NCBI GenBank assembly: GCA_018830295.1 | Contig: JAHJSM010000001.1 | Coordinates: 386,203-450,202 of the forward strand | DNA length: 64,000 bases | From: Patescibacteria group bacterium | GTDB lineage: Bacteria; Patescibacteriota; Minisyncoccia; Portnoybacterales; UBA2143 | Direction of reading: 5' to 3' | Shown here: piece after piece, positions 30,239-62,846 of the stretch | Position numbering within the stretch: the first letter of the stretch is position 1 | Layout of the letters: each line of letters starts with the position of its first letter | Made by a program: the position numbers and the translations under genes | Notes under the pieces: model-generated | The model's input: the letters and a program-made list of their open reading frames with translations, nothing else | Database searches by the model: none | What the model was told of the DNA's origin: nothing

Positions 30239-30240
30239 TT

Positions 30241-34749: not shown

Positions 34750-34756
34750 TGTCTTT

Positions 34757-34787
34757 GGGGACAGTCCCCGCAACGGGGACTGTCCCC
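34757..34787. repeat. type A palindromic element
   Basis: GGGGACAGTCCCCGCAACGGGGACTGTCCCC, between rplK and the dCMP deaminase gene. Confidence 0.9.
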
Positions 34788-34833
34788 AAATCATTTGTTT
34801 TTTAACAATTTAGGAAATAAGGAGGGAAATATA

Positions 34834-36213: not shown

Positions 36214-36214
36214 A

Positions 36215-36484
36215 ATGGAACAATGTTTACATTGCGCAGGTTACCTCTTTTTTAAACCATTGCCGGATGAAACTTTTGCTTGTTGTCAGAAACATGATGA
36301 AAATATAAAAGACATTAATCTGAAAACAGGAGCTAGTCCGGCTATTGAAAAGCATGGATTAAAAGGGGTTCTTTGCAAAAAGTTCAAGCCAGGAAAAAGT
36401 ATTTGTTGTACTTCCGAGGTGACTCCTTTTTTACTTCATCCAGCTAGAGTGGAAGGCGAAAAGGAATTATCAGCGTTAATGTGA
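36215..36484 (+). CDS. small Cys-rich hypothetical protein
   Basis: 89 aa with CxxC…CC…C…CC. Shine-Dalgarno AAAGGAGGG. A hairpin plus T-tract lies downstream. Confidence 0.4.
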   Translation: MEQCLHCAGYLFFKPLPDETFACCQKHDENIKDINLKTGASPAIEKHGLKGVLCKKFKPGKSICCTSEVTPFLLHPARVEGEKELSALM

Positions 36485-36649
36485 TTAGTAAAAAAAACAA
36501 AGTCCTATCGGGATTAAATCCTAATGGGGCTTTATTTTTTGGTAATTTTACTGTAATATCAAGAGTAGTGAAATTTATTTTACGCCTGGAGCACATTAGA
36601 TTAGCATAAAATAAAGCATGCTATTTTAATCGCGACAGTCGCAGTTTTT

Positions 36650-37189
36650 ATGATTTTAGGTATAGACAAATTACATAAATTAGTCAAAGACAAAAAGTTG
36701 GTGGAGGGTCTTTGCCAGCGCGAGTTGGAAAATCCAGAGGGCGCCGGTTTTGATTTGCGATTAGATGAAGTTTATGAAATTAGCGGAAAATCATTTTTAG
36801 GGATTGAAGAGAGAAAGACGCCTGATACAAAACTTTTAGCTAAATTTAATGAAGATAAAAAAACAAGTTTTGTTTTCAAACCTGGTAATTATTATTTAGT
36901 AAAAACAATTGAGAAAGTTAATACTCCAGATGACATATTAATACTTTTTCGTCCGCGAACAACTATTTTTCGTTCGGGGATGATGTTATTAACAGGCAAT
37001 GCTTCCCCTGGTTATTGTGGTGAATTAAATTTTGGTTTTGTTAATCTCGGTCCAGTTGATGTGGAAATTGAACTTGGGGCAAGAGTGGTACACGCTATGT
37101 TTTACAAAGTTGATGGCAAGACGCACTTATACCGTGGGCAATGGCAAGGAGGCAGGGTGACTACTGATAAAAAAGAAAAACAAGTTTAA
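36650..37189 (+). CDS. dCTP deaminase / dUTPase-family protein
   Basis: Homology to the Dcd jelly-roll region (…FRPRTTIFRSGMMLLTGNASPGYCGEL…). Confidence 0.7.
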   Translation: MILGIDKLHKLVKDKKLVEGLCQRELENPEGAGFDLRLDEVYEISGKSFLGIEERKTPDTKLLAKFNEDKKTSFVFKPGNYYLVKTIEKVNTPDDILILFRPRTTIFRSGMMLLTGNASPGYCGELNFGFVNLGPVDVEIELGARVVHAMFYKVDGKTHLYRGQWQGGRVTTDKKEKQV

Positions 37190-37206
37190 GTATTGTCGTT
37201 TTATAA

Positions 37207-38436
37207 ATGTTTATCAAAACAGATCCTAAAATTAGCAAGTTGATTGAATTGGAGTTTGCCCGTCATCAGGATGGGCTTAATTTGATTGCGGCGGATAATT
37301 ATGCCAGTCCGGCGGTAAGGAGGGCAGTGGGGAGTATTTTGAGCGCGCGATACGCGGAGGGTTATCCGAAAAAAAGATATTATTCGGGGCAGAGGTTCAT
37401 TGACCAAATTGAGGAAGCGGCTATTTCGCGCGCCAAAAAATTGTTCGGCGCGAATTTTGCTAATGTTCAGCCGCACTCCGGTTCGCAAGCGAATCAAGCG
37501 GTCTATTTCGCTTTGCTTAAGCCAGGAGACATAATTTTGTCTATGCGGATTGACCAAGGTGGGCATTTGTCGCATGGTTCGGAAGTTAATTTTTCTGGCC
37601 AATTATATAAGTGTGTTTTTTATGGCGTTGATAAAAAAAGCGGAAGAGTCGTATTTGAAGAAGTTGCGAAAATAGCGAGGAAAGAAAAGCCGAAACTAAT
37701 CATCGCCGGCGCTTCCAGTTATCCGCGGCAAATTGATTTTTCTAAATTCGGTGCGATCGCCAAAGAAGTTGGCGCTTATTTAATGGCTGATATCGCTCAC
37801 ATTGCTGGTTTAGTCGCGGCTGGGCTTCATCCGAGCCCTTTTCCGCATTGCGATCTTGCGACGATGACGACGCATAAAACCTTGCGGGGCGCGCGCGGGG
37901 GGATAATTCTTTCAAATAAAAAAGAAATCGCTGAAAAAATAGACAAAGCGGTTTTTCCCGGCCTGCAAGGCGGGCCCTTGCAAAACGAAATTGCAGGGAA
38001 AGCGGTCGCGCTTAAAGAGGCGGGGCAAAAAACTTTTATTAGTTATCAAAAACAGGTCTTAAAAAACAGCCAAACTATGGCCGAGACACTTTTGAGTGAA
38101 GGACTGGACTTGGTTACCGGCGGCACGGATAATCATTTGGTTTTGGTTGATTTGACGCGGCTTGGCGTTTCAGGGAAGAAAGTGCAAGAAGCGCTTGAAG
38201 AAGTAAACATCTATGTCAATCGCAATGCAATCCCTTATGATATTCGTTCAAAATGGGAAACATCAGGGATTAGAATTGGAACTCCCGCGGTGACGACTAA
38301 GGGATTGAAAGAAAAAGAAATTAAACAAGTCGGCGTTTGGATTGCTCAAATTATTAAAGATATTAATAGCAATAAAATTAGAAGAGAAATTAAAAAAGAA
38401 GTGATTAAAATGGCGAGACGGTTTCCAATTATGTAA
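37207..38436 (+). CDS. glyA: serine hydroxymethyltransferase
   Basis: PLP-lysine region TTHKTLRGARGG and overall SHMT homology. Confidence 0.95.
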   Translation: MFIKTDPKISKLIELEFARHQDGLNLIAADNYASPAVRRAVGSILSARYAEGYPKKRYYSGQRFIDQIEEAAISRAKKLFGANFANVQPHSGSQANQAVYFALLKPGDIILSMRIDQGGHLSHGSEVNFSGQLYKCVFYGVDKKSGRVVFEEVAKIARKEKPKLIIAGASSYPRQIDFSKFGAIAKEVGAYLMADIAHIAGLVAAGLHPSPFPHCDLATMTTHKTLRGARGGIILSNKKEIAEKIDKAVFPGLQGGPLQNEIAGKAVALKEAGQKTFISYQKQVLKNSQTMAETLLSEGLDLVTGGTDNHLVLVDLTRLGVSGKKVQEALEEVNIYVNRNAIPYDIRSKWETSGIRIGTPAVTTKGLKEKEIKQVGVWIAQIIKDINSNKIRREIKKEVIKMARRFPIM

Positions 38437-41745: not shown

Positions 41746-41749
41746 ATTT

Positions 41750-41808
41750 GGGGGCTGCCCCCGTTGCGGGGGCAGCCCCCAAATTTAGCCGCGGCGGGGG
41801 CAGCCCCC
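41750..41808. repeat. type B palindromic element plus an extra half
   Basis: GGGGGCTGCCCCCGTTGCGGGGGCAGCCCCC … GCGGCGGGGGCAGCCCCC. Confidence 0.9.
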
Positions 41809-49374: not shown

Positions 49375-49381
49375 CTAAGAT

Positions 49382-49412
49382 GGGGGCTGCCCCCGCGGCG
49401 GGGGCAGCCCCC
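49382..49412. repeat. type B palindromic element
   Basis: GGGGGCTGCCCCCGCGGCGGGGGCAGCCCCC, upstream of rnpB. Confidence 0.9.
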
Positions 49413-49426
49413 AGTCGCAATTGGGG

Positions 49427-49460: not shown

Positions 49461-49852
49461 GACCCGAGCAAATTAGATAGTCGCCTCGCAATTTTGTGGG
49501 GAGGAAAGTCCGGGCGTCGCAAATGGCAGCGGGTAATACCCGCCGGTCGCGAGATTAGGGAAAGCGCCACAGAGACAATATTTCTTTGGTTTTGGGGCAA
49601 TCTCCAAAACTGGGGTAAAGGTGAAAAGTGAGGGATTAAGACCCCTCTCTCCGCAGGGAGACCTGTCGGAGTGGCAAGCCCTGCCTGACGCAAGAGCAAA
49701 CCATTCCGCAATATTGCGGGATGATGAAAAGTAGCTCGCTTGAGGTTAGCGGCAACGCTAACCCTAGATAGATGACTATCCAAGACCCTCCGTCGCCCTT
49801 TGGGCTATGGCGGGTGAGACAGAACCCGGCTTATTATTTGCTCGGGTTTTTG
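49461..49852 (+). ncRNA. rnpB: RNase P RNA (bacterial type A-like)
   Basis: P1 pairing CCCGAGCAAAU / AUUUGCUCGGG. P4 strands GGAAAGUCCGGGC and ACAGAACCCGGCUUA. GGUAAAGGUGAAA motif. U-tract at the 3' end. Confidence 0.85.
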
Positions 49853-49874
49853 TTTGTCTTGATTTTTAGAAGAT

Positions 49875-49960
49875 GGGGGCTGCCCCCGTTGCGGGGGCAG
49901 CCCCCATTCTGTGGGGTGAGAAAGACGGGAGCAGTCCCCGCTGCGAGGGCTGCCCCCCTA
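49875..49960. repeat. type B palindromic element plus a degenerate hybrid copy
   Basis: GGGGGCTGCCCCCGTTGCGGGGGCAGCCCCC … GGGAGCAGTCCCCGCTGCGAGGGCTGCCCCCC. Confidence 0.85.
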
Positions 49961-50024: not shown

Positions 50025-51413
50025 ATGAAGAAGTCAGAATTGGTTTTTACATTTATTTTGGTTCCGCTGGATTTTTTGGCGCTTTTGGGGGCGGGGGCGG
50101 CGGCTTATTTTCTGCGGACGAGCGAATGGGTTGCCCAATATCGTCCAGTAGTTTTCTACTTAAACCTTCCTTTTGGACGGTATTTTTGGCTTGTTTTTGG
50201 AGCGGCTCTTTTTCTTTTAATTATTTTCGCTTTAGTCGGATTATATAAAATCCAAATCAGGCGGTCTTTGCTGGACGATTTTCTTAAGATATTAATCGGC
50301 GTTTCGGCGGGAATGATTGCTTTGGTTTTTTATATCTTTCTTAGTCGCGAATGGTTTGATTCTCGATTTATTATGCTCACTGGCTGGGGAATGTCAGTCG
50401 CCTTTGTTTTTTTTGGACGGCTTTTTGTCCATTTCTGGCGGAGTTATTTAATTAGGAAATACAATTTTGGCGCTCATAGGGTTATGATTATTGGTCGGGA
50501 CGGTATTAGTAAAAGGATTAGCGGGTGCATTAAGCAAAATCCAAATTTAGGATACTATTTAGCCGCCAATTTGATTGAGCCGGACATGACGGAAATCAGG
50601 AGCAAGGTTAACAATCCGGGCGTTGAGGAAATTATTTTAGCCGATACGGATTGGCCGAGAGAAAAGGTTTTGGAATTAGTTGATTTTTGCGAAGAAAACC
50701 ATTTGTCCTTCAAATTCGCGCCTAATCTTTTCCAAACACTCACGAGCAATACCTCAGTAGAAACGATCGGAGGCATTCCAATTGTTGAATTGAAAAGAAC
50801 CGCTTTGGACGGATGGGGGAGAATTATTAAAAAATTCGTTGACTTGAGCGGAGCGATTTTTGGAATAGTTTTTTTAAGTCCCTTTTTCGCCTTAACTGCG
50901 CTTGCGATTAAATGGGATTCGCCTGGGCCAGTTTTGGTTAAATTAAAAAGAGTGAGCCATGGCAAAGAATTTAATCTTTATAAATTTCGTTCAATGGTGA
51001 ATGGCGCGGAGGATTTGAAAAAATTTCTTTGGGCGTACAATGAGAGGGATGACGGGCCTTTATTTAAAATAAAGAAAGACCCACGCGTGACTTCGGTTGG
51101 ACGATTCTTGAGGAAATATCGGATTGATGAGTTTCCCCAATTAATTAATGTTTTGAAAGGAGAAATGAGTTTGGTCGGACCGCGACCGCATCAGCCAGAC
51201 GAAATCGCCCAGTATCAAAAACATCATAAAAAGGTTCTCGCGATTAAAGCGGGCATGTCGGGATTCGCCCAAATTAGCGGCAGTTCGGATTTATCTTTTG
51301 AGGAGGAGGTCAAATTAGACACATACTATATTGAAAAATGGTCGCTTTTAATGGATATTAAAATTTTATTAAAGACAATTGTTGTTTTGGTAAGGGACAG
51401 GTCGGCATGTTAA
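50025..51413 (+). CDS. polyprenyl-phosphate sugar-1-phosphate transferase (WbaP/CpsE-like 'bacterial sugar transferase')
   Basis: N-terminal TM helices and the C-terminal sugar-transferase catalytic domain (…PGPVLVKLKRVSHGKEFNLYKFRSM…DEFPQLINVLKGEMSLVGPRP…). Confidence 0.85.
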   Translation: MKKSELVFTFILVPLDFLALLGAGAAAYFLRTSEWVAQYRPVVFYLNLPFGRYFWLVFGAALFLLIIFALVGLYKIQIRRSLLDDFLKILIGVSAGMIALVFYIFLSREWFDSRFIMLTGWGMSVAFVFFGRLFVHFWRSYLIRKYNFGAHRVMIIGRDGISKRISGCIKQNPNLGYYLAANLIEPDMTEIRSKVNNPGVEEIILADTDWPREKVLELVDFCEENHLSFKFAPNLFQTLTSNTSVETIGGIPIVELKRTALDGWGRIIKKFVDLSGAIFGIVFLSPFFALTALAIKWDSPGPVLVKLKRVSHGKEFNLYKFRSMVNGAEDLKKFLWAYNERDDGPLFKIKKDPRVTSVGRFLRKYRIDEFPQLINVLKGEMSLVGPRPHQPDEIAQYQKHHKKVLAIKAGMSGFAQISGSSDLSFEEEVKLDTYYIEKWSLLMDIKILLKTIVVLVRDRSAC

Positions 51414-51422
51414 TTAATTATT

Positions 51423-52508
51423 ATGCGCGTTGCTTTGGTTCATGATTATCTTAATCAGTACGGCGGGGCAGAGAGGGTTTTGGAAGCGTTTTGCCAGATC
51501 TTTCCAAAAGCGCCGATTTACACTCTTTTTTATGACAAAAAAGGGACTGGTTTTGCTTTCGCGAATCGCCGCGTTGAGACATCTTTTTTACAAAAAACGC
51601 CCTTTGTTAAATCCCATCATCGCTCTTTTTTAATGCTCATGCCAATCGCGATTGAGCAGTTTGATTTTTCCCAATACGACTTGGTTCTTTCCGATTCTTC
51701 CAGTTACGCTAAGGGTGTAATTACTCCTCCAGGAACAAAGCATATCTGTTATTGCCACACGCCCATCCGTTACGCATGGGATGATTCGCATAAATATATT
51801 AACGAGTTTGGCTACTCCAGAGCCGCGCAAAAAATTATTCCATTTTTTATGAATTATATTCGTTTTTGGGACGAGCAGGCCGCCGCGCGAGTAGACGGAT
51901 TTATCGCTAACTCTTCTTTTGTGGCGAAAAGAATTAAAAAATATTATCAGCGCGAATCGGAAATTATTCACCCTCCGATTAGAACCGACTTGTTTTATTT
52001 AGCCGAAAAACCAGAAAAATATTTTTTAATGGTTGGCCGCCTTTTGACTTACAAACGGTTTGATTTGGCGATTGAGGCGTTTAACCAACTTGGTTGGCCT
52101 TTAAAAATTGTGGGGGACGGGCCTGACCGCTCGCGGTTGGAAAAAATGGCGCGGGGGAATATAGAGTTTGTTGGTTTGGTCCCGGACAGTAAGTTAAGAG
52201 ATTATTACGCGCATTGTCGGGCTTTTGTCTTTCCTCAGGAAGAGGATTTTGGGATTGTTCCTGTTGAAGCGATGGCGTCAGGCCGTCCGGTGATCGCTTA
52301 TCAGGGCGGAGGAGCGCTGGAAATTGTCCAGCCTGGAGTGACAGGGATGTTTTTCAAAGAGCAGACAACAGAATGTTTAATTGACGCTTTAAAACAATTT
52401 GAGTCCGACGATTTTAATCCAAAAATTATTAAAGAGCAGGCGGAGAAATTTAGCCAGGAGCGGTTTAAGGAAAAAATAAAAGAGTATCTAAATGAATATC
52501 GGAATTGA
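51423..52508 (+). CDS. family 4 glycosyltransferase
   Basis: GT4/GT-B C-terminal EX7E-type region (…FVFPQEEDFGIVPVEAMASGRPVIA…). Confidence 0.8.
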   Translation: MRVALVHDYLNQYGGAERVLEAFCQIFPKAPIYTLFYDKKGTGFAFANRRVETSFLQKTPFVKSHHRSFLMLMPIAIEQFDFSQYDLVLSDSSSYAKGVITPPGTKHICYCHTPIRYAWDDSHKYINEFGYSRAAQKIIPFFMNYIRFWDEQAAARVDGFIANSSFVAKRIKKYYQRESEIIHPPIRTDLFYLAEKPEKYFLMVGRLLTYKRFDLAIEAFNQLGWPLKIVGDGPDRSRLEKMARGNIEFVGLVPDSKLRDYYAHCRAFVFPQEEDFGIVPVEAMASGRPVIAYQGGGALEIVQPGVTGMFFKEQTTECLIDALKQFESDDFNPKIIKEQAEKFSQERFKEKIKEYLNEYRN

Positions 52509-52531
52509 CATCAGAGTTTTGGCGCGCGGGG
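52469..52531 (+). repeat. 63-bp direct repeat, copy 1, flanking the inserted gene
   Basis: GGAAAAAATAAAAGAGTATCTAAATGAATATCGGAATTGACATCAGAGTTTTGGCGCGCGGGG. Identical to 53727-53789. Confidence 0.9.
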
Positions 52532-52578
52532 TTAAGATAATATTATTCTAATAACGGTTAGTTAATAGTCAAAAATTT

Positions 52579-53727
52579 ATGAAAATCAAAACCTCCCTCA
52601 TTATAACAATCATCATTATAACAATCATCATTCTATTTTCCATATTAATTACGGGAGCTGTTTTAGTTTACAAACAGATGACTGATTTTAACCAAGATAA
52701 CAAGATAGACATAGGCGACTTCGGCATCTTAATGAGCGAGTGGGGAAAGGGACCATTAACTACCTGCAAAAAATGGAATCCGGGCCATTATATTCTTCCT
52801 ACATCAGAAGAAGATCTTGATGAGATTGAGTTAATTCTGTCTAACCCCTTAAATCATATTGCCGGACTTCAAGCTTACTTTACGTGGAGGCAACTTGAAA
52901 CTGAAAAAGGTGTTTATGATTTTTCTAAAATTGAAGAGATGCTTGAACTTGTAAAAAAATATAATAAACACTTATTTGTGCAAGTATCAGATAGAACATT
53001 TAAAGCAGGTGAGAAGCCAGTTCCTGATTATCTATATGAAGATCCAATCTATAATGGAGGCATTGAGTTATTTACATCAGGAAAGGGTTCTGTCTCGAGA
53101 ATATGGGACCCAAATGTAAATGAAAGATTCAACTTGCTTATATTAGAATTAGGAAAAAGATTTGACGATAAAGAAAATTTTGAAGGAATAGTTTTTGAGG
53201 AAAGTGCTCTTGATATAGATACTACAACAGCAGAGGGTTATTCTGTTGAAAAATTGGTTGACGGAATAATGCATAGAAATAACGCAGCTGCTCTGGCTTT
53301 TCCCAATTCTGTGGTTATACAGTACATGAATTATGGTCCGTCTGAATTTATTAATCTTTTTGAATATCTTTATTTAACAGGAGTTGGTACGGGCGGTCCC
53401 GACCTTGTGCCTGATAAAGGAAGATTTCCTGAAAAACAAAGAATACCCGCTTACGATTATTACCCCCTATACGCAGGTAAAATGCCTTTGGGCGTAGCCG
53501 TTCAAACACCTAATTTAATGAAAGATGAAAGAAATAAGAAAGGAATTTTTACTCTGGATGGATTTTGGGATATGGGTTTAAACACATTGAAACTAAATTA
53601 TATTTTTTGGTCTTTTGTTGAACAGCCCTGGCATAAATTCAGCTTCACGAATGATATTTTACCATACATTAATGAAAGAGAAGGAGAAATCAATGACGGT
53701 TGCCCTGAGAATATGCAAGTAAAGTAG
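52579..53727 (+). CDS. foreign-looking secreted/membrane-anchored (β/α)8 glycoside-hydrolase-like protein with a dockerin-like Ca-binding motif
   Basis: N-terminal TM helix, DFNQDNKIDIGDFGILMSEW motif, GH-like core. CpG-poor codon usage (AGA/ATA/ACA), unlike the neighbouring genes. Flanked by 63-bp direct repeats. Confidence 0.55.
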   Translation: MKIKTSLIITIIIITIIILFSILITGAVLVYKQMTDFNQDNKIDIGDFGILMSEWGKGPLTTCKKWNPGHYILPTSEEDLDEIELILSNPLNHIAGLQAYFTWRQLETEKGVYDFSKIEEMLELVKKYNKHLFVQVSDRTFKAGEKPVPDYLYEDPIYNGGIELFTSGKGSVSRIWDPNVNERFNLLILELGKRFDDKENFEGIVFEESALDIDTTTAEGYSVEKLVDGIMHRNNAAALAFPNSVVIQYMNYGPSEFINLFEYLYLTGVGTGGPDLVPDKGRFPEKQRIPAYDYYPLYAGKMPLGVAVQTPNLMKDERNKKGIFTLDGFWDMGLNTLKLNYIFWSFVEQPWHKFSFTNDILPYINEREGEINDGCPENMQVK

Positions 53728-53789
53728 GAAAAAATAAAAGAGTATCTAAATGAATATCGGAATTGACATCAGAGTTTTGGCGCGCGGGG
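53727..53789 (+). repeat. 63-bp direct repeat, copy 2
   Basis: Identical to 52469-52531. Carries the true start ([13 protein letters not shown]) of the downstream GT4 gene. Confidence 0.9.
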
Positions 53790-56053
53790 CGAGGACGGGG
53801 GTGGAGGAATACGCGATTAATCTCCTGTCAGAACTTTTGCCTTTGAACAAGGGCGTTAATTACAAACTTTTTTACAACGCTTTTCGCAAGGCGGAGCTGA
53901 ATTATCCGTGGCTTAGTTTGGATAATGTCCATCTTAAAGACAGCAGAATCCCTAATCGTTTTTTCTTTGCTGTCGCGCGATATTTGAACGCGCCAAAAAT
54001 TGACAAACTGCTTGGCGGAATTGATGTCTATTTTAACCCGCATTTTTTTGTCGCGCCCGTTTCTCGCGATTGTCGTAAGGTGATTACTTTTCATGATTTG
54101 TCCTTTGAGCATTATCCAGAATTTTTTTCTAAAAGAAAAAGATTGTGGCAAAAGGTTTTAATGAATACAAAAAAAGAAGCGGAGAAAGCGGACAAGATTA
54201 TCGCTGTTTCTAATTCAACTAAGGCGGACCTGGTTAATCTTTACGGCGTTGATGAAAGAAAAATAGAGGTGATTTATTCGGGGGTTTCGGAAAGATTTAA
54301 AGAGATAGACAAGGACAGTCCCTCGCCGCGAGGGACTGTCCCTTGTTGGATAGAAGCGATTAAAAAGAAATATAATTTGCCCGATAAATTTATTTTATAT
54401 TTCGGGACGATTGAGCCGAGAAAAAATATTGTCGGTATTATTAAAGCGTTTGAATTATTAAAAAAAGATAAGTCATTGAAGTTAGTTATCGCCGGGACAA
54501 AGGGGTGGCTTTATAAAGACATTTTCAAAGCGGCTCAAAATTCAAAATATAGCCAAGATATATTTTTTACGGGCTTTGTTGAAGATGCGGACAAACCATT
54601 TCTTTATAACTTAGCCGAGCTTTTCGTCTATCCAAGTTTTTTTGAGGGATTTGGATTTCCTCCTTTAGAGGCGATGGCTTGCGGCTTGCCGGTAATTGTC
54701 TCTTGTAACTCTTCTCTGCCTGAAGTTGTTGGAAAAGCGGCTCTCATGGTTGACCCTGCCAACATTGACGAACTTGCTTGGGCGATGGAAATCGCGTTGA
54801 ATGACCAAGAATTAAGAAAACGAATTATCGCGGCGGGCCTTGAGCAAGCGAAGAAATTCTCATGGCGAGAATGCGCGGAGAAGACGATGGCTGTTTTGGG
54901 GAAAACGGGGGCTGCCCCCGTTGCGGGGGCAGCCCCCATCCGAAGTAAGATGGCAATTGACGCGCGTTTTTACGGACCTAAGCAAAAGGGGTTGGGGCGT
55001 TATGTTCAGAAGTTGGTTGAAAACTTAGAAAGGGAGGATGTTATTAATAAATACTTCGTTTTTTTGAGAAGAGAAAATTGGGATGAATATTATCCTAAAA
55101 ATCCAAATTTTAAAAAGGTTTTGGCGGATTGCCGATGGTATGGTTTTAAAGAACAGTTTTTAATGCCTTGGAAAATTTGGCGCGAGAAAGCCGACTTGAC
55201 ACACTATCCTCATTTTAATGTTCCAATTTTTGCCCCAAAACCATTTGTTGTCACTATCCACGATTTAATTCTTAAAAGATTTCCCACACGCCGCGCTTCT
55301 ACGCTTGGTTTTTTTTCTTACTGGTTTAAAAATTTTGCCTATCATTTTGTTATTTCCCTCGCTTTGCGTCGCGCGAAAAAAATTATCGCCATTTCTAATT
55401 ATACGAAAAAAGATATTTTAAAATATTTCAAAGTTAGTCCGGAGAAAATAGAGGTGGTTTATGAGGGGGGAGTGATACAGACGGGAGCAGCCCCCGAAAG
55501 CGGGGGACTGCCCCCTAATATCCAGTCCCCATCTAATATCCCCAACCCTTATTTGCTTTATGTTGGGAATGCTTACCCGCATAAGAATTTAGAAAGGTTG
55601 ATTTTGGCTTTTGCCAAAATTAAACATTCGGATTTAAGATTAGTTCTGGTGGGGGAGATGGACTATTTTTATCAACGGCTTCAAAAAGAATTTTCTCATG
55701 TTCAAGGATTGGTTTTTACCGACTTTGTTTCGGATAGCGATTTGGAAGTTTTGTATCGCGGGGCGTCTCTTTATGTTTTCCCTTCTCTCTGTGAGGGATT
55801 TGGACTTCCACCTTTGGAGGCGATGAGTTACGGTTTGCCCGTGGTTTCCTCAAACGCGACTTGTCTGCCTGAAATTTTAGGAGACGCGGCGGTATATTTT
55901 AATTCAGAGAACATAGATGAAATGGCGGAAAAAATTAAAGAGGTTTTAGATAACGAGGCGTTAAGAAAAGATTTAATTTTAAAAGGATATAAAAGAGTTA
56001 AAAAATACGATTGGATAAAAATGGCGAGAGAAACGGTGAAGATATATAATTAA
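53750..56053 (+). CDS. two GT4 glycosyltransferase modules fused in one frame through a palindromic element
   Basis: Module 1 (~53750-54900) and module 2 (from MAIDARFYG at ~54949) each carry the GT4 motif (…[24 protein letters not shown]… and …[24 protein letters not shown]…). They are joined by [16 protein letters not shown] encoded by the repeat at 54907-54937. Two further elements lie in-frame at 54312-54340 and 55484-55516. Confidence 0.7.
54907..54937. repeat. type B palindromic element bridging two GT4 modules in-frame
   Basis: GGGGGCTGCCCCCGTTGCGGGGGCAGCCCCC is translated as [10 protein letters not shown]. No stop codon on either side. Confidence 0.85.
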
Positions 56054-56056
56054 AGA

Positions 56057-56091
56057 GGGGACAGTCCCCATTCTGAATGGGGACTGTCCCC
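56057..56091. repeat. type A palindromic element
   Basis: GGGGACAGTCCCCATTCTGAATGGGGACTGTCCCC. Confidence 0.9.
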
Positions 56092-56144
56092 GGATTTGTT
56101 AAATTTTTTCTTGTGGAGATTTTGTGGTATAATACAAGTATATT

Positions 56145-58607
56145 ATGGAGGGGAAGACAAAACAATTTGGGCGGGTTTTTACCGCTTTGTATGATATTAA
56201 GCCCGTTACGGCGGCGGGCGTTTTAGATGTTGAAAGGATAGAGAAGATAACCGACATTTTGGATTTAAGTGGGGAGAAGAAAAAAGAATTTATTCCTTAC
56301 GATTTGCCAAAAGAAGAATCTTTTAATTTTATTTTAACAAATACAGACGATTTGGATGTTTTGCCAACTCGCGAGGAAATTTTGGCGGAGTTGAATAAAA
56401 TTGAAAATTTTGAAGAATTTTTAAGGGCGGCCGAAGAGGGGGAGAGAAAAAATAAAGCGCAAGAGGAAAAAGCGCAAGCGGATATTTTGGATAAAAACAA
56501 TCAAAGGTCAGACCTTTCAAAACGACATTCTCGTGACCTCAATTCTCTTCCACGGATATCGGGGTTAGAGGAATTTTATTTTCCCGAGGTGGCGCGAGGA
56601 ACAGTTTTAGTCGCGGAGAGCGAGGATAAAAAAGAGGTCCGGGCGGATGGGAATAAATCTTTGTTTAAATTTTTAATGGCAGGGATTTTAATTGCTTTAA
56701 TTGTTCCGGCGGCCACTTGGGTTGGGTATGGGTTTAAAATCAAAGAGGATGTTTTAAGTAGCGGGCTTTCGGCTTATCAAAATCTTTTGTCCGCCAAACA
56801 GTCGTTAGAAGAGTCTGATTGGCAGGATGCCGAGCATAATTTTGGATTGGCGCGTTCAGATTTTTTTGAAGCGCATCAAGATATTAATCAATTAGGTCGG
56901 TTGACTTTAGGCGTCTTGGAACAAATGCCGGGCGGTTCTTTAATTTCTTCGGGCAGTCATTTAGTTAAAGTTGGCGAGAGTTTAGCGCGAGCGGGCGAAG
57001 GACTTGCCGCGGCGGTTAATCTTTTTTCTTTAAATAATTTATTTAATCTTGTTGAATCGCCGCAAGGCGGGACTCTAACGGATTCAATCGCTTTAAGTAA
57101 GGATAATTTAAGAGCGGCTTTGACCGAGATTGAGACGGCCAATCAGGAGATTGAACAGATTAAAATCAAATCGTTGCCGGAAGATATCCAAAGCGGCATT
57201 CTTTTTTTGAAAGAAAATTTGCCTTTGGTTAAAGAAACGCTTTCTCAAGCGCTTGATTATTCAGTGGCATTTTTGAGCATTTTAGGGCATGATAATCCTC
57301 GCCAGTATCTTTTAATTTTTCAAAACAACGGTGAAGCGAGGGCGACAGGCGGATTTATCGGGACTTATGGCTTAATCACATTAGACAGAGGCGCGTTGAC
57401 GAACCTTTTCATAGACGGTATTTATAACGCGGACGGACAGTTGCGAGAAAAAATTATTCCTCCGCAGCCGATTCAAAAAATTAGCACCGCTTGGTCAATG
57501 CATGACGCGAACTGGTTCGCTGACTTTCCGACTTCCGCCCAAAAAGTGGCTTGGTTCTACGAAAAAACAGGCGGGCCGACGGTTGATGGTGTGATTAGTT
57601 TGACACCGACTGTAGTTGAACGCCTCTTGGCGTTAACTGGCCCTATTTCTATGCCGGAATACGGCGTTGAATTGGACGCGAGCAGTTTTGTTGAATTAAT
57701 TCAATACAAAGTGGAGACCGACTATGATAAAGAGTTAAATCAGCCAAAAAAGATTTTGGCGGATTTTGCTCCGAAATTTATTAAACAAATAGGCGAGTTA
57801 TCCGCGGAAAAAAAGAAAGAGGCGGTGGAAATTATTTTTGATTGCTTAGAAGAAAAACATATCTTAGTGTTTTTTAGTAATCCTTCTTTGGAAAAATTAG
57901 CGGACGAAGAGGGGTGGTCGGGAAAGATTCTTTCAACGGATAAGGATTATTTAAGCGTCGTTTCGTCAAACATTAATGGCTACAAAACAGATTGGGTGAT
58001 TAAAGAAACAATTGCTCATCAGGCGGAAATTCAAGGAGACGGTTCGGTTATTGACACACTCACTATTACTCGCCAGCATCAGGGAGGCGATTTGGCATAC
58101 GATTGGTGGAACAGAGTTAACGCGAATTATTTGAGGGTTTATTTGCCTTTAGGGAGTCAGTTGATTTCCGCTGAGGGGCAAAGTTTAGAAATTTATCAGC
58201 CGCCGATTGATTATGAAGAAAATAATTTTAAAAAAGACCCGCTGGTTGAGAAGATTGAGAGTAGTATGATTATTGACTCTAAAACTGGAACGCGCATTTT
58301 TGAAGAAAGCGGCAAAACAGTTTTTGCCAACTGGGCTTATGTTAGTCCGGGCGAAACGGTTGTTTTGACCTATAAATACAAATTGCCTTTCAAGATTGGC
58401 TTGACCGGGGCGACTGATAGTTATAGTTTGTTAACGCAAAAGCAGTTAGGCAGTTTAGGAAGCGCCTTTAGTCATCAATTAAAGTTTCCGTCTAACTGGC
58501 AGGTCTCATGGAGATATCCAGAAACATCTAGACTAAACGCGGGAGGAATTAATTTTAACGGCGACCTAAAAACAGATAAATTCATCGGCGCGTCATTTGA
58601 ATTTTGA
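56145..58607 (+). CDS. large hypothetical membrane-anchored protein (820 aa) upstream of murJ
   Basis: ~175-aa cytoplasmic N-terminus, one TM (LFKFLMAGILIALIVPAATWVGYGF), then a large extracytoplasmic domain. Carries an in-frame copy of the AAAGGTCAGACCTTTCAAAACGACATTCTCGTGAC repeat (56503-56538). Confidence 0.5.
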   Translation: MEGKTKQFGRVFTALYDIKPVTAAGVLDVERIEKITDILDLSGEKKKEFIPYDLPKEESFNFILTNTDDLDVLPTREEILAELNKIENFEEFLRAAEEGERKNKAQEEKAQADILDKNNQRSDLSKRHSRDLNSLPRISGLEEFYFPEVARGTVLVAESEDKKEVRADGNKSLFKFLMAGILIALIVPAATWVGYGFKIKEDVLSSGLSAYQNLLSAKQSLEESDWQDAEHNFGLARSDFFEAHQDINQLGRLTLGVLEQMPGGSLISSGSHLVKVGESLARAGEGLAAAVNLFSLNNLFNLVESPQGGTLTDSIALSKDNLRAALTEIETANQEIEQIKIKSLPEDIQSGILFLKENLPLVKETLSQALDYSVAFLSILGHDNPRQYLLIFQNNGEARATGGFIGTYGLITLDRGALTNLFIDGIYNADGQLREKIIPPQPIQKISTAWSMHDANWFADFPTSAQKVAWFYEKTGGPTVDGVISLTPTVVERLLALTGPISMPEYGVELDASSFVELIQYKVETDYDKELNQPKKILADFAPKFIKQIGELSAEKKKEAVEIIFDCLEEKHILVFFSNPSLEKLADEEGWSGKILSTDKDYLSVVSSNINGYKTDWVIKETIAHQAEIQGDGSVIDTLTITRQHQGGDLAYDWWNRVNANYLRVYLPLGSQLISAEGQSLEIYQPPIDYEENNFKKDPLVEKIESSMIIDSKTGTRIFEESGKTVFANWAYVSPGETVVLTYKYKLPFKIGLTGATDSYSLLTQKQLGSLGSAFSHQLKFPSNWQVSWRYPETSRLNAGGINFNGDLKTDKFIGASFEF

Positions 58608-60250
58608 TGATAAAACGATTTTTTAATAATCAATCAAAGACGATTTTTTCGGCCGCTGTTGTTTTAGGAGCGGCTTCTTTTGTAAGTCGTTTTTTGGGTT
58701 TGATTCGTGATAAAATTTTGGCAGGAATGTTTGGCGCGGGCGGAGAGTTGGATGCGTATTACGCCGCTTTTCGCATTCCGGATTTAATTTATTCTTTGCT
58801 TGTTTTAGGCGCCGTTTCGGCTGGCTTTATTCCTGTCTTTGTTAATTATCTCAACCAAGATAAAAAAACGCAAGATACGAATCATTGGCATTTAGCCAAT
58901 AGCGTTCTTAATTTAATGGCCTTGTCTTTAATGGCGGCGTGTTTTCTTTTGGCGATTTTCGCTCCTTGGATAATGAAATTAGTCGCGCCTGGTTTTTCCG
59001 CGGAGCAGTTGTCGCTTGCTTCCCAATTAACCAGAATTATGTTTTTAAGCCCTTTCTTTATGGGTTTGTCCGCGATTTTTGGAGGCATTTTGCAAAGTTT
59101 TCGTCGATTTCTCGCTTACGCGATGGCGCCGATCGCGTATAATTTAGGCATTATTTTTGGCGCTTTGGTTTTGACAAATTATTTTGGTCTTTTAGGTTTG
59201 GCTTATGGCGTGGCGCTTGGCTCTTTTTTTCATTTGGCGATTCAAATTCCGACTGCTTTTCTCTGCGGATTTAGGTGGCGTCCAGTTTTTGACTTCAGGT
59301 TTGACGGCGTCAGAAGGATTTTCAAATTAATGCCCGCGCGGGTCTTGAGTTTAGGGCTTTCCCAGATTACGATTTGGATTATGACTGCTTTTGCTTCTCT
59401 TCTGACGGTTGGGAGCATCGCGATTTATAGTTTGACTTTGAATATTTGGAGTTTTCCTTTGGGTGTCTTTGGCGTTTCTTTCGTTGTGGCGGCTTTTCCC
59501 AAACTTTCCGAAACGGCGCAGAAAAATGATTTGGAAGGATTTATTAAAACATTCTATTCCGCCGTCCGCCAAATACTTTTCTTTATTCTTCCATCGTCTG
59601 CTTTGTTTATTGTTTTGCGAACGCATCTCGTTAGTATCATTCTCCAAGGCGGTCGATTCGGTCCACAAGAAACGGCTTTAGCCGCGGAAACACTAGCGTA
59701 TTTTTCAATCGCTTTATTCGCCGAAGCGTTGGTTCTTCTTTTCTTGCGATGCTATTTCGCTTGGGAAGATTCCAAAACGCCATTTTTAATCGGCTTCGCG
59801 GCAATGGCGGCGCGGCTCTCGGCGGCTTGGGTTTTGTCCTATTCGCTGGGCGTGGCAGGTTTGGCGCTTGGCTATGCCATAGGAAGTATTTTTTATTTGA
59901 TTTTACTGGCGGTCTTTTTTAGGGCGAAACTTAGGAAAAAGTTTGGCGCGGGCGTTAATTTGAATGGAAAAGATGTTCTTATTTCAGGAATAAAAATGGT
60001 CTCAGCTTCTTTTCTCGCTGCTTTGGCGAGTTGGCTTTTTTTGCGGTCTTTCGGAGAAATTATTTGCCATAAGGGCGTTTTTGAAATATGCTGTCAGGGC
60101 GGAATGGCGGGCATAATCGGCGTTTTGTCGTATTTCTTTTTCGCTTGGGTCTTCCGATTAAGCGAACTGGATTTATTTGTCAAAGCATTATCGCGCCGCC
60201 TGCCTTGGAAGAAAATATCATGGTTCGGAATTGGAAGCGGGAGGGAGTAA
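58604..60250 (+). CDS. murJ: lipid II flippase MurJ (MviN family)
   Basis: MurJ N-terminal signature (…LGLIRDKILAGMFGAGGELDAYYAAFRIPDLIYSLLVLGAVSAGFIPVF…) and ~14 TM helices. Confidence 0.85.
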   Translation: MMIKRFFNNQSKTIFSAAVVLGAASFVSRFLGLIRDKILAGMFGAGGELDAYYAAFRIPDLIYSLLVLGAVSAGFIPVFVNYLNQDKKTQDTNHWHLANSVLNLMALSLMAACFLLAIFAPWIMKLVAPGFSAEQLSLASQLTRIMFLSPFFMGLSAIFGGILQSFRRFLAYAMAPIAYNLGIIFGALVLTNYFGLLGLAYGVALGSFFHLAIQIPTAFLCGFRWRPVFDFRFDGVRRIFKLMPARVLSLGLSQITIWIMTAFASLLTVGSIAIYSLTLNIWSFPLGVFGVSFVVAAFPKLSETAQKNDLEGFIKTFYSAVRQILFFILPSSALFIVLRTHLVSIILQGGRFGPQETALAAETLAYFSIALFAEALVLLFLRCYFAWEDSKTPFLIGFAAMAARLSAAWVLSYSLGVAGLALGYAIGSIFYLILLAVFFRAKLRKKFGAGVNLNGKDVLISGIKMVSASFLAALASWLFLRSFGEIICHKGVFEICCQGGMAGIIGVLSYFFFAWVFRLSELDLFVKALSRRLPWKKISWFGIGSGRE

Positions 60251-60253: not shown

Positions 60254-62080
60254 ATGATACCTCAATCACATATTCGGAATTTTTCTATTATCGCGCATAT
60301 TGACCACGGGAAGTCCACTTTGGCTGACCGTTTTTTGGAATTGACGGGGACGGTTGAGAAAAGAAAGATGCGGGAACAGGTTTTGGATATGATGGATTTG
60401 GAAAGAGAAAGGGGGATTACGATTAAACTTCAGCCGGCGCGGATGGAATACACATATAAGGGCGAGCGGTATCTTTTGAATTTGATTGATACGCCCGGGC
60501 ATGTTGATTTCGCTTACGAGGTTTCGCGGAGTTTGGCGGCGGTGGAGGGGACAATTCTATTAGTTGACGCGAGCCAAGGAGCGCAAGCGCAAACACTCGC
60601 CAATCTTAATTTGGCGCGCGGGCAGAATTTGATTATTATCCCCGTGGTTAATAAAATTGATTTAGGACACGCTAAAGTTGATGAAGCGATTAAAGAGATT
60701 AGCCAATTAACTGAAGTTGGCGAAGAAGATGTTATTAAAATTTCCGCTAAAAGCGGATTGAATGTGGAGCGGGTCTTGGAAGAGGTTATTAAAAAAATTC
60801 CCGCGCCAACGGGCGAATTTGAAAAACCTTTAAGGGCTTTGATTTTTGATTCCTCTTACGACACATACAAAGGCGTGATCGCATACATTAGAATCGTGGA
60901 TGGGGAAATTAAAAGGGGTGACAAAGTAGAGATGTTCGCTTCGGGAGTTCAAACGGAAGTTATTGAGGTTGGGGTTTTTAGGCCAATGCTCGTTAAGATA
61001 GAAACATTAAGAGCGGGCGAAACGGGATATGTTGCCACGGGCCTGAAAGAAATCGGGCAGTGCCGGGTGGGCGACACGATTATTTCGCCAAAAAGGGGAC
61101 AGTCCCCATTCAAAATGGGGACTGTCCCCGTTATTCTTCCTTTGCCCGGATACAAAGAGCCGAGTCCGCTCATTTTCGCCAGCTTTTATCCTGTGGACGC
61201 GAACGATTACGATCTTCTCAAAGACGGACTCGCTAAATTAAATTTAAGCGACGCTTCTCTGGTTTATGAATTAGAATCGTGCGAAGGATTGGGACGCGGC
61301 TTTCGTTGCGGATTTTTAGGGATGCTTCATTTAGAAATTGTTTCAGAGCGGCTTAAAAGGGAATACGATTTAGACTTGGTGACGACCTCGCCTTCGGTCA
61401 GTTACCGTATTTTGGATGATTCACAAAGAGGGTATCAAGTAATTTCTTCCGCTTCTGATTTTCCTGACGCGAGCAGGTTCGCGGAGACCCAAGAGCCGTG
61501 GATCAATTTGGAAATTATTACGCCCGTAAATTATTTGGGTCAAACAATGAAAATTTTGGAAAATTTAAGAGGTATTTATGGCGAGACCCAGTATTTAAGC
61601 AGTGAAAGAGTTTTAATTAAATATGAAGCTCCTTTGGGCGAAATTATTATTGATTTTTATGACAAACTTAAAAATGTAACGGCCGGTTACGCGTCCATGA
61701 GTTATGAATTATCGGATTATCGTCCAGCCGACTTAACGCGACTTGATATTTTAATCGCCGGAGAAAAAGCAGAGGCGTTTTCTCGGATTGTCCCGCGCGC
61801 GAAGGCGGACCAAGAAGGAAGGGCTTTGGTTAAGAAACTCAAAGAAGTTATTCCTTCTCAATTATTTACAATCGCTTTACAGGCGGCGATTGGCGGAAAG
61901 GTTATCGCTCGCGAAACGATTAGCGCTTTGCGAAAAGATGTGACGGGCTACCTTTATGGCGGCGACTATTCCCGTAAAAGAAAACTTTTGGAAAAACAAA
62001 AAAAGGGTAAAAAAAAGATGATGCAATCAGGGAGAGTCAATATTCCTTCAGATGTGTTTTTGAAGGTGTTGAAGAAGTAA
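60254..62080 (+). CDS. lepA: elongation factor 4 (LepA) with an in-frame palindromic-element insertion
   Basis: IRNFSIIAHIDHGKSTL and DTPGHVDF motifs, and the LepA C-terminal domain. The repeat at 61094-61128 is translated as …RGQSPFKMGTVPVILP…. Confidence 0.95.
   Translation: MIPQSHIRNFSIIAHIDHGKSTLADRFLELTGTVEKRKMREQVLDMMDLERERGITIKLQPARMEYTYKGERYLLNLIDTPGHVDFAYEVSRSLAAVEGTILLVDASQGAQAQTLANLNLARGQNLIIIPVVNKIDLGHAKVDEAIKEISQLTEVGEEDVIKISAKSGLNVERVLEEVIKKIPAPTGEFEKPLRALIFDSSYDTYKGVIAYIRIVDGEIKRGDKVEMFASGVQTEVIEVGVFRPMLVKIETLRAGETGYVATGLKEIGQCRVGDTIISPKRGQSPFKMGTVPVILPLPGYKEPSPLIFASFYPVDANDYDLLKDGLAKLNLSDASLVYELESCEGLGRGFRCGFLGMLHLEIVSERLKREYDLDLVTTSPSVSYRILDDSQRGYQVISSASDFPDASRFAETQEPWINLEIITPVNYLGQTMKILENLRGIYGETQYLSSERVLIKYEAPLGEIIIDFYDKLKNVTAGYASMSYELSDYRPADLTRLDILIAGEKAEAFSRIVPRAKADQEGRALVKKLKEVIPSQLFTIALQAAIGGKVIARETISALRKDVTGYLYGGDYSRKRKLLEKQKKGKKKMMQSGRVNIPSDVFLKVLKK
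61094..61128. repeat. type A palindromic element inside lepA
   Basis: GGGGACAGTCCCCATTCAAAATGGGGACTGTCCCC. Confidence 0.85.
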
Positions 62081-62651: not shown

Positions 62652-62722
62652 GCGGATGTAGCTCAATGGCAGAGCGTCTGCTTCCCAAGCAGATGACGAG
62701 GGTTCGATTCCCTTCACCCGCT
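62652..62722 (+). tRNA. tRNA-Gly (CCC)
   Basis: Acceptor GCGGAUG/CACCCGC with one A·C mismatch, D-arm GCUCAAUGGCAGAGC, anticodon loop UUCCCAA, T-arm GAGGGUUCGAUUCCCUU. Confidence 0.85.
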
Positions 62723-62728
62723 CACGAA

Positions 62729-62800
62729 GCCGAGGTAGCTCAAGGGTAGAGCAACGCACTCGTAACGCGTAGGTTGTGGGTTCGATTCCCACCCTCGGCT
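62729..62800 (+). tRNA. tRNA-Thr (CGU)
   Basis: Acceptor GCCGAGG/CCUCGGC, D-arm GCUCAAGGGUAGAGC, anticodon loop CUCGUAA, T-arm GUGGGUUCGAUUCCCAC. Confidence 0.85.
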
Positions 62801-62817: not shown

Positions 62818-62846
62818 GGGACAGTCCCCAAGAGGGGACTGTCCCC
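62818..62846. repeat. type A palindromic element
   Basis: GGGACAGTCCCCAAGAGGGGACTGTCCCC. Confidence 0.9.

Follow-up and report, generated by a model that had tools for sequence, protein, structure and literature searches.

A single hydrolase-like gene lies between two glycosyltransferase genes of a conserved surface-glycan cluster in this Portnoybacteria-like CPR (Patescibacteria) bacterium with a tiny genome, and it was very probably acquired horizontally and inserted there. The gene is flanked by two exact 64-nt copies of the junction at which the glycosyltransferase genes overlapped in the ancestral state. Taken as a whole, our explanation of the insertion, its origin, its mechanism and its function is likely to be right. 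Coordinates are those of the window, which is the entire 64,000-nt stretch of DNA that was analysed.

Layout of the insertion and its ancestral junction

50025-51413, + strand: priming sugar-phosphate transferase (Bac_transf), first gene of the cluster
51423-52508, + strand: upstream GT4 glycosyltransferase, 361 aa, intact
52468-52531, + strand: direct repeat copy 1, 64 nt (repeat search; colinear with the uninterrupted junctions of relatives)
52492-52551, + strand: relic pseudo-start ORF, 19 codons, a remnant of the duplication (read directly from the sequence)
52532-53725, + strand: inserted segment, very probably foreign, 1,194 bp, made up of a 47-nt leader and a single ORF (repeat and ORF searches)
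52579-53727, + strand: insert gene, 382 aa (ORF, profile, homology and structure-model evidence)
53726-53789, + strand: direct repeat copy 2, 64 nt (repeat search; junctions of relatives)
53750-56053, + strand: downstream GT4-GT4 ORF, 767 aa, intact
56145-58607, + strand: DUF4012 protein of the surface-glycan cluster
58604-60250, + strand: MurJ-type flippase of the surface-glycan cluster

The two repeat copies, spaced 1,258 nt apart, were found by a repeat search and are the sole long exact nonpalindromic direct repeat within the window. By our own estimate (~2e9 position pairs × 4^-64), the chance expectation for a 64-mer is ~1e-29. The sequence-only reading had described an exact 63-bp duplication; the direct repeat is real, and it extends one base further to the left. 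That reading was right that the repeat spans the stop of the upstream GT4 gene and the start of the downstream one. Copy 1 contains the final 13 codons and the TGA of the upstream gene (stop, 52506-52508), forming its functional 3' end, and it also carries the ATG (52492) and initial 13 codons of the downstream gene as a relic start. This relic is the truncated pseudo-start noted earlier, and 27 nt separate the end of its ORF from the ATG of the insert gene. Copy 2 contains a relic 3' end of the upstream gene (53726-53766), and it supplies the downstream gene with its functional ATG (53750) and the native 24-nt leader before it. Both GT4 genes are whole, the upstream one being completed by copy 1 and the downstream one regaining its start and leader from copy 2; the insert gene is intact as well. 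The stop codon of the insert gene, TAG, is itself shared across the boundary, with the T supplied by the insert and the AG by copy 2. The hydrolase-like gene is the only ORF of the 1,194-bp insert, which contains no mobility gene and no terminator, and an inverted-repeat search found no terminal inverted repeats at its ends. A -35/-10-like site spans the junction at 52519-52546; counts of such sites are no higher than in shuffles, so it carries no evidential weight.

The cluster order Bac_transf, GT4, GT4, GT4, DUF4012 is kept in 80 related CPR loci, none of which has a homologue of the insert gene (0 of 80). The 767-aa GT4-GT4 ORF corresponds to two separate genes in relatives, which are joined here via an in-frame palindromic element. 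The GT4 proteins of related lineages are 57 to 84% identical. A search of related genomes for an uninterrupted GT4-GT4 junction, proposed in the sequence-only reading, yielded at least 20 relatives in which the junction is colinear with the upstream sequence, one repeat copy and the downstream sequence; in several of them the junctions share a 17-nt stop/start overlap. In the ancestral state, the stop of the first GT4 gene overlapped the start of the second by 17 nt. The empty-site junctions in relatives therefore show that an insertion took place and duplicated the stop/start overlap, and together with the identity of the copies they support the earlier suggestion of a recent insertion with target duplication. 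The lack of any difference between the two copies means that the event is young or that the copies are undergoing homogenisation; its recency is read from this identity. No empty-site allele was found for the same strain, the matches listed for the flanking GT4 proteins including only contig L001, which bears the insert. There are no exact matches to the repeat core in JGI metagenome contigs, so that collection apparently does not include this genome.

In more distant relatives the junction of the upstream and downstream GT4 genes is variable, and other genes are located there. Most of the "gaps" at the junction in relatives are a conserved gene of ~200 aa with hydrophobic segments at its N and C termini. 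Insertions at the same junction in loci L019, L037 and L049, considered as parallel cases, were rejected, as flanking direct repeats are absent from them.

It is very improbable that the arrangement is an artefact of assembly or binning, whereby a piece of archaeal DNA was joined to a CPR contig or two strain variants were merged, with the assembler creating the duplication. The source is a metagenome-assembled genome, 64-nt repeats collapse in short-read graphs at small k, and the Logan contig ends exactly k-1 = 30 nt inside the repeat on both sides. Against this, a raw-read Logan unitig (k = 31; L002, equal to window positions 52502-53755) includes the 31-mers of both insert/repeat junctions, and the full arrangement is present at 100% identity in L001, a 5,256-bp contig under another assembly accession (GCA_018820055.1). 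The look-up index lists additional contigs that bear the insert gene. Host sequence is also in register on both sides of the insert, unlike what is expected of a chimeric join. Finally, a duplicative insertion of like kind, 53 nt, occurs orthologously at the neighbouring gene junction in two related genomes, where it is exact in L040 and diverged in L042. The divergence of this orthologous duplication between two independent genomes indicates that such structures are biological. The 53-nt duplicative insertion is older than the 64-nt one, and an Rfam scan of the 130-nt element in L040 and L042 matched no family. A 64-nt exact repeat in L022, considered as a further case, proved to be two copies of a ~140-nt MITE-like element with inverted ends.

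Composition and source of the insert

The insert ORF (52579-53727) has a GC content of 0.349, a GC3 of 0.29 and a CpG observed/expected ratio of 0.64. This ratio is the minimum among 53 tabulated ORFs, the majority of host ORFs lying at ~1.0 to 1.7 and the second-lowest value, 0.71, belonging to a 144-aa ORF. The tetranucleotide distance of the insert to the host is 0.388 (host windows, 0.272 ± 0.035), while its distance to a Nanoarchaeota contig is 0.253. The earlier description of the insert as CpG poor and compositionally foreign is thus borne out, also by the k-mer comparison with the host that had been proposed for it.

The best homologue (86% amino acid identity, 86.5% nucleotide identity) is found in contigs of DPANN Nanoarchaeota, which carry archaeal markers: ribosomal protein S6e, an archaeal IF-2-type GTPase and diphthamide synthase. 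The DNA-level match is confined to one block.

52758-53713, + strand: ungapped alignment, 86.5% nucleotide identity, to the Nanoarchaeota homologue (L003, 10174-11129)

The 5' 226 nt of the insert, which comprise the leader and the transmembrane and dockerin-like part, have no DNA-level match in L003, and a search for their origin gave no match in any of the compared loci. The 3' flank of the archaeal homologue also differs from that of the insert. We infer that the 5' part (leader, transmembrane anchor and dockerin-like loop) differs in origin from the barrel. Between the insert gene and the Nanoarchaeota homologue, dS is 0.57 and dN/dS is 0.126; with this dS, the direct donor must be unsampled. 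The next-best homologue contigs are likewise low in GC and CpG poor. The donor genome was presumably low in GC and CpG depleted, with DPANN Nanoarchaeota as its closest sampled relatives. Whether the donor itself was DPANN-like we regard as evenly balanced: some other close homologues lie on low-GC contigs that are not clearly archaeal, and the nearest homologue is 13.5% divergent in DNA and does not have the 5' 226 nt, both of which weigh against a DPANN origin. A viral carrier was rejected. No close homologue was found on viral contigs, the relatives there being only 24 to 30% identical, and the BFVD matches are generic glycoside hydrolase barrels.

Gene exchange between CPR bacteria and DPANN archaea has been reported (PMC12455944). 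The present case likewise involves a gene for a membrane-associated protein, 86% identical in amino acids between Patescibacteria and Nanoarchaeota genomes. It differs in its base-level resolution of where the gene integrated, of the ancestral empty site and of the junctions, and in the direction of transfer: Patescibacteria were predicted as donors in that work, whereas composition here points to transfer into the bacterium.

Horizontal origin was judged from best matches, composition and empty sites. The same evidence bears on the converse reading, that the gene is ancestral and native to the cluster and that relatives have lost it through recombination of one repeat copy with the other. Precise deletions are indeed promoted by direct repeats, and the GT4 junction is, as noted, variable in more distant relatives. 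However, this reading is extremely unlikely: none of the 80 related loci retains a homologue, the composition is foreign to the host and nearer to that of the archaeal contig, the closest homologues lie outside the CPR, and the 64-nt repeats could not have stayed identical over the time in which the GT4 proteins of these lineages diverged to the 57 to 84% identity given above.

The inserted protein and its proposed function

The insert protein has an N-terminal transmembrane helix (residues 2 to 36), a Ca-loop/dockerin-like motif (approximately residues 36 to 55) and, in the structure model, a confident (β/α)8 barrel of glycoside hydrolase type at residues 65 to 375, which is the fold of clan GH-A. 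The membrane anchor and the barrel seen in the sequence-only reading hold up; the dockerin-like motif is only half a dockerin and is below threshold. Its match to PF00404 is a single repeat (profile positions 2 to 22 of 57; 14.6 bits versus a cut-off of 22.9; E, 0.039), the stretch is disordered in the structure model (pLDDT <50 at residues 41 to 57), and the two tandem Ca-binding loop-helix repeats that define dockerin type I at the PF00404 threshold are not present.

E208, after β4, is conserved in 54 of 57 sequences, and the residue before it is variable (E, P, N or D) rather than a fixed Asn. At the nucleophile position of β7 the insert protein has Q309, so that the canonical clan GH-A nucleophile Glu at the C-terminal end of this strand is absent; Gln occupies the position in 45 of the 57 relatives and Glu in 9. 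The Glyco_hydro_42 match (17 bits versus a cut-off of 21) spans 33 residues only, PDB profile matches reach an E value of 6e-5 across ~60 residues, and an NCBIfam search gave no match. The protein also lacks membership in the GH14 β-amylase family and the catalytic Glu pair of that family. Compared with GH42 and GH35 β-galactosidases and GH14 β-amylases, to which its identity is 9 to 13% with scores under Pfam thresholds, it has Gln rather than the nucleophile Glu at β7, an invariant Asp after β6, a single domain and a transmembrane anchor. The insert protein belongs to an unclassified family, for which at least 163 metagenomic relatives were found.

It is possible, although somewhat doubtful, that the product is glycan active. 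A 37% identical homologue has GT4, GT2 and pyruvyl-transferase genes as its neighbours, and in a second homologue a GHL15 domain is part of the same protein. Since the insert has no terminator, the gene may be cotranscribed with the glycan operon, and its product would then be an extracytoplasmic, membrane-tethered glycan hydrolase or transglycosylase-like enzyme. By analogy with the hydrolases of exopolysaccharide operons, such an enzyme might trim or remodel a surface or host glycan. As in the cases of PslG, BcsZ and the hydrolase domain of PelA, a secreted or membrane-tethered TIM-barrel protein of glycosidase type is found among glycosyltransferases and a flippase. In contrast to them, the insert protein has no sequence-level membership in those families and is a recent addition rather than a conserved member of the cluster.

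Possible routes of integration and their meaning

The insert does not have the features of an insertion sequence or transposon (transposase, terminal inverted repeats, short target duplication), nor those of an integrase island or prophage remnant, with no integrase in the insert and no tRNA, tmRNA or other att target (the nearest tRNAs are at 62652-62800). A general inverted-repeat search, as distinct from an attC model, found no inverted repeat in the repeat or at the 3' end of the insert, as an integron cassette would have, and no integrase is among the ORFs examined at 43.6 to 64 kb. As in transposon and CRISPR integration, the insert is flanked by a direct duplication of its target, of the kind produced by staggered cuts and fill-in; here, however, the duplication is 64 bp and there is no transposase, Cas1, inverted ends or repeat array. 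CRISPR repeats are ~28 to 37 bp. The insertion resembles islet- or moron-like insertions in being a single foreign gene of atypical composition between genes that are adjacent in relatives, oriented with the operon and leaving its neighbours undisrupted. It differs from them in having no phage or island context, integrase or tRNA target and in being flanked by an unusually long, 64-nt exact duplication of a coding junction.

It is quite improbable that a recombinase or transposase supplied in trans mobilised the gene as a cassette and that the repeat is an attachment or target site duplicated on integration. Site-specific integration does typically leave direct repeats around a lone foreign gene, and the second long-duplication insertion in relatives differs in length (53 versus 64 nt) by about one helical turn. 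Nevertheless, the insert has no recombinase or terminal inverted repeats, there is no palindromic attC-like site in the repeat or the insert ends, and the repeat is not a tRNA but an unremarkable coding junction that relatives share through descent. Known transposon target duplications are 2 to 14 bp, the 64-nt and 53-nt duplicated targets have no sequence in common, and viral contigs hold no close homologue.

The route we find most likely is integration without any element-encoded recombinase, and as a specific mechanism we propose, tentatively, a repair- or template-switch-mediated duplicative illegitimate recombination. Foreign DNA would have been taken up and then joined by double illegitimate recombination or by a microhomology-mediated template switch, in which the fork would copy the repeat, then the foreign DNA, and reanneal 64 nt back; alternatively, a staggered break may have been filled in. 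Either a template switch or fill-in would produce an insert with a duplicated stretch on its two sides. Selection may then have retained the insertion, as the duplication spared the two overlapping GT4 genes. Double illegitimate recombination, a recombinase-independent integration of fully heterologous DNA as proposed here, is documented in natural transformation (Hülter & Wackernagel 2008, cited in PMC8116780). The events documented there, as cited, are laboratory events in a proteobacterium, whereas the present case is a CPR bacterium.

A Campbell-type event, in which a circle with one repeat copy and the gene underwent a single homologous crossover at the chromosomal repeat, would also give the exact topology of repeat, insert and repeat with identical copies. 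The circle could have come from excision in a sibling genome or from end joining of host and foreign fragments. Such an event would account for spread in the population, and perhaps also for how the duplication arose; 64 bp exceeds the usual minimal length for RecA recombination, and the k = 31 unitig fits a 1,258-bp circle of repeat and insert beside a chromosomal repeat equally well. We nonetheless consider it improbable. It presupposes a host repeat already joined to the foreign gene, so that the first joining is still illegitimate; the 1.26-kb circle encodes nothing for its replication or mobility; and at least two contigs (the window and L001) show the gene between both host flanks.

Two independent duplicative events (64 nt here and 53 nt in L040/L042) among ~80 orthologous clusters hint at a recurrent route, and we offer it as a speculation that is unlikely to hold, that CPR bacteria own a recombinase-independent duplicative insertion route with target duplications of 50 to 65 bp at gene boundaries. 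By this route, foreign or regulatory DNA would enter at boundaries while tightly packed, overlapping genes would be spared. If it is real, it would amount to a reversible uptake of interdomain (DPANN to CPR) genes by streamlined genomes.

The event described here is an ordinary kind of gene transfer in an unusually tidy instance, and it is no new kind of system. It provides a base-resolved, probably interdomain gene acquisition by a CPR bacterium, in which the occupied and the reconstructed empty site can be compared and both the junction structure and a donor-like composition can be seen. A genome of overlapping genes has accepted a new gene undamaged, and homologous recombination between the 64-bp repeats should be able to remove the insertion precisely. 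Should insertions with long duplications turn out to be frequent in CPR bacteria, a distinctive integration mechanism would be indicated. The insert also points to an uncharacterised family of glycoside hydrolase-like barrels, common to ultrasmall archaea and bacteria, that may act on cell-surface or host glycans.

The duplicated junction and its uninterrupted counterpart

An exact 64-nt direct repeat (R) flanks a 1194-bp segment (the insert), and a scan of the whole window found no other long exact nonpalindromic direct repeat. The exact direct duplication described in the sequence-only reading stands, except that R starts at 52468, one base farther left, and is 64 nt long.

51423-52508, plus strand: upstream GT4 glycosyltransferase gene, TGA stop inside R copy 1
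52468-52531: R copy 1, with the last 13 codons and TGA stop (52506-52508) of the upstream GT4, plus ATG 52492 and 13 codons of the downstream GT4 start
52532-53725: insert, 1194 bp between the R copies, single ORF
52579-53727, plus strand: insert ORF, 382 amino acids; TAG stop made of T from the insert and AG from R copy 2
53726-53789: R copy 2, with the functional start (ATG 53750) of the downstream GT4
53750-56053, plus strand: downstream GT4 gene, ATG inside R copy 2

As proposed earlier, copy 1 leaves a truncated pseudo-start of the downstream GT4, whose frame enters the insert and ends after 19 codons (52492-52551).

A 5256-bp contig from assembly GCA_018820055.1 is 100% identical to window positions 50837 to 56092, both R copies included. 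A k=31 Logan unitig from the raw reads of SRR6514730 corresponds to positions 52502 to 53755, which is the insert with k-1 = 30 nt of R on each end, and both insert/R junctions are therefore present in reads. Four contigs with the insert protein were counted in the look-up index, and a look-up of the exact flanking GT4 proteins gave a single place, which has the insert as well. It is unlikely that these data represent an empty chromosomal site and a separate R-containing circle instead of an integrated insert.

The upstream GT4 protein matched 80 CPR loci (one genome per species; 57 to 84% amino acid identity) from Portnoybacteria, Moranbacteria, Yanofskybacteria, and unnamed Patescibacteria. 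Based on tblastn with each cluster protein, the gene order Bac_transf, GT4, GT4, GT4, DUF4012 is conserved across these loci, and 0 of the 80 have a homologue of the insert protein. The uninterrupted GT4-GT4 junction that the sequence-only reading anticipated is found in at least 20 of the closest loci, where the genes abut and the nucleotide sequence is colinear with upstream sequence, one R copy, and downstream sequence; in several, stop and start overlap exactly as predicted by deleting the insert and one R copy from the window. The ancestral state is therefore an uninterrupted, overlapping junction. Judged by these sequence comparisons, the window carries an insertion accompanied by a 64-nt duplication (62 to 64 nt allowing for chance edge matches), as had been claimed.

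Among more distant relatives, what lies at the GT4-GT4 junction varies. Many Moranbacteria and Portnoybacteria loci have an unannotated, conserved gene of ~200 amino acids with hydrophobic N- and C-terminal segments there (about 7100 to 7900). Locus L019 has an unrelated, unannotated 333-amino-acid ORF (7137-8138), L049 has a 182-amino-acid ORF (7151-7699) in a low-GC gap (0.25 versus 0.35 for the locus), and L037 (7111-8372) is another such relative. No flanking repeats are present at these variable junctions.

Origin and nature of the insert protein

The CpG observed/expected ratio of the insert ORF (0.64) is the lowest of 53 tabulated ORFs (next lowest, 0.71; most host ORFs, about 1.0 to 1.7), and its GC (0.349) and GC3 (0.29) are both among the lowest. 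Its tetranucleotide L1 distance to the window is 0.388 versus 0.272±0.035 for equal-length host windows, a distance reached by 1 of 629 of them, and its distance to a Nanoarchaeota contig is just 0.253. These values agree with the CpG-poor, foreign composition noticed earlier. Positions 31501 to 32900 (within a 1084-amino-acid ORF, 30214-33468) and 35901 to 37300 (around ORFs at 35437-37189) also have tetranucleotides nearer the Nanoarchaeota contig than the window average; they could be further foreign segments or merely AT-rich.

Among 5.8 billion proteins, the closest homologue of the insert protein is P0002 (86% identical). Its contigs (GC, 0.30 to 0.31; CpG observed/expected, 0.27 to 0.41) also encode ribosomal protein S6e, an archaeal IF-2-type GTPase, and diphthamide synthase, which indicates that they are genuinely archaeal. 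The next homologues (64 to 73%) are likewise on low-GC, CpG-poor contigs; one adjoins NFACT-R and CRS1/YhbY genes, and the contig affiliation of the others is not clear-cut. Over the barrel-coding part (52758-53713), the alignment to the archaeal gene is gap free at 86.5% nucleotide identity, with a dN/dS of 0.126, indicating purifying selection, and a dS of 0.57, which means that the direct donor was not the sampled archaeon. The 5' 226 nt of the insert (leader, transmembrane helix, and motif D-F-N-Q-D-N-K-I-D-I-G-D-F) had no match in any fetched locus, and archaeal homologues have a Cys-rich segment in its place. We conclude that a CPR surface-glycan cluster recently acquired this single gene, probably from an archaeal source; the earlier reading of a recent insertion into a glycosyltransferase cluster was essentially right. 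Exchange of membrane-associated genes between CPR and DPANN has been reported (PMC12455944).

An AlphaFold2 model (pLDDT 92; 57-sequence alignment) predicts a hydrophobic N-terminal helix (residues 2 to 36), a disordered linker, and a complete (β/α)8 barrel, consistent with the membrane-anchored, hydrolase-like protein first described. Sequence-profile matches are limited to the β2-α2 motif of GH42/GH35 (PDB profile E, 6e-5), and profile search did not place the protein in a known GH family (Pfam, 17 bits, under the cutoff of 21; NCBIfam, no match). The dockerin-like motif holds as a resemblance, one subthreshold repeat (E, 0.039), and not as a full domain. Among the 57 family sequences, E208 (after β4) is conserved in 54 and D275 (after β6) in all 57, Q309 (after β7) is Gln in 45 and Glu in 9, and N251 and H70-Y71 are among five conserved positions highlighted. 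Judged from the alignment, these residues form no canonical clan GH-A catalytic pair. The protein is an unclassified GH-type barrel, outside GH42, GH35, and GH14.

One family member lies inside a GT4/GT2/pyruvyl-transferase cluster (L110), and another is the C-terminal domain of a 758-amino-acid protein with a GHL15 domain (L098, 1178-3454), which supports a glycan-directed role. A close homologue is the C-terminal domain of a 1234-amino-acid protein (L097, 820-4524). A 52-amino-acid ORF lies beside homologues in two different archaeal-type contexts (L003, 11356-11514; L089, 1878-2036).

Route of integration and other repeats

The insert has no second ORF or terminal inverted repeats, no tRNA adjoins the insertion site, the insert protein has no close viral homologues, and R is simply a coding junction that the ancestor already had. 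These observations give no support to insertion of a transposase, integrase, or integron type. Integration of heterologous DNA via illegitimate recombination would be the most economical reading. This might have occurred by double illegitimate recombination of the kind documented in natural transformation (Hülter and Wackernagel 2008, as cited in PMC8116780), by a microhomology-mediated template switch that copied 64 nt a second time, or by a widely staggered break and fill-in. Because the two GT4 genes overlap, an insertion here would keep both functional only if it also duplicated the overlap, and selection for a duplication-bearing event may explain why this one is observed. Since the two 64-bp R copies are identical and 1.26 kb apart, homologous recombination between them should be able to remove the insert precisely, making the acquisition reversible.

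When both ends of every cluster gene in the 80 loci were checked for a nearby second copy against shuffled probes, there were just two further significant cases. In L040 (5999-6234, Bac_transf-GT4 junction), the first 17 codons of the upstream GT4 gene occur a second time, as an exact 53-nt copy located 183 nt upstream of the real start; a 130-nt element ending in TGGTAAGATATAAT lies between the two. L042 (4098-4330) has the same structure, with the upstream copy diverged and a stop in codon 2. Two genomes that were assembled independently share this structure as an orthologous feature, and long-duplication insertions are therefore real and heritable in this lineage; that they reflect a dedicated mechanism seems improbable. 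The TGGTAAGATATAAT of this 120- to 130-nt element is promoter-like, and a terminator-like hairpin spans the left junction in L040.

The window also contains dispersed GC-rich perfect palindromes, GGGGGCTGCCCCC-GYNRC-GGGGGCAGCCCCC and GGGGACAGTCCCC...GGGGACTGTCCCC, which are mostly intergenic.

54904-54939, 54307-54343: copies in the GT4 region
14452-14488, 15433-15469, 41747-41781, 49379-49413, 49872-49908, 56057-56091: other copies
61095-61129, 25696-25733, 34754-34791, 29268-29304, 62818-62846: further copies

One is located, in frame, between two GT4 genes that relatives keep separate, and it fuses them through a linker into the 767-amino-acid ORF; another adds an in-frame loop of 10 residues to the first GT4 module. 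A 35-nt sequence, AAAGGTCAGACCTTTCAAAACGACATTCTCGYGAC, occurs twice at 97% identity, at the start of a minus-strand 1510-amino-acid ORF (21776-21810; ORF, 17261-21793) and inside the DUF4012 gene (56503-56537). Locus L022 has two ~140-nt MITE-like intergenic copies (2670-2810 and 4345-4485) with terminal inverted repeats GAACCAAAAGAATTA...TAATTCTTTTGGTTC and an exact 64-nt core in common, on either side of an RNase H/RNase P RNA region.

The glycan cluster and the proposed role

49465-49848: RNase P RNA, bacterial class A (220 bits), directly upstream of the glycan cluster, between two GC-rich palindromes
Around the insert, all plus strand: Bac_transf priming transferase, three GT4 modules, DUF4012 protein, MurJ-type flippase

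These genes constitute a flippase-dependent surface-glycan pathway. A promoter/terminator scan found no terminator-like site within the insert, and since the cluster genes are all on the plus strand, cotranscription of the insert is expected. If hydrolases encoded in exopolysaccharide operons are taken as the analogy, the insert protein would most plausibly be a membrane-tethered extracytoplasmic barrel that trims or remodels the product of the cluster or a host glycan.

Single-gene acquisition is a known class of event, and the interest of this case, which is moderate, comes from its tidy junction, its interdomain flavor, and its uncharacterized hydrolase-like family. The long flanking duplication keeps both neighboring GT4 genes intact.
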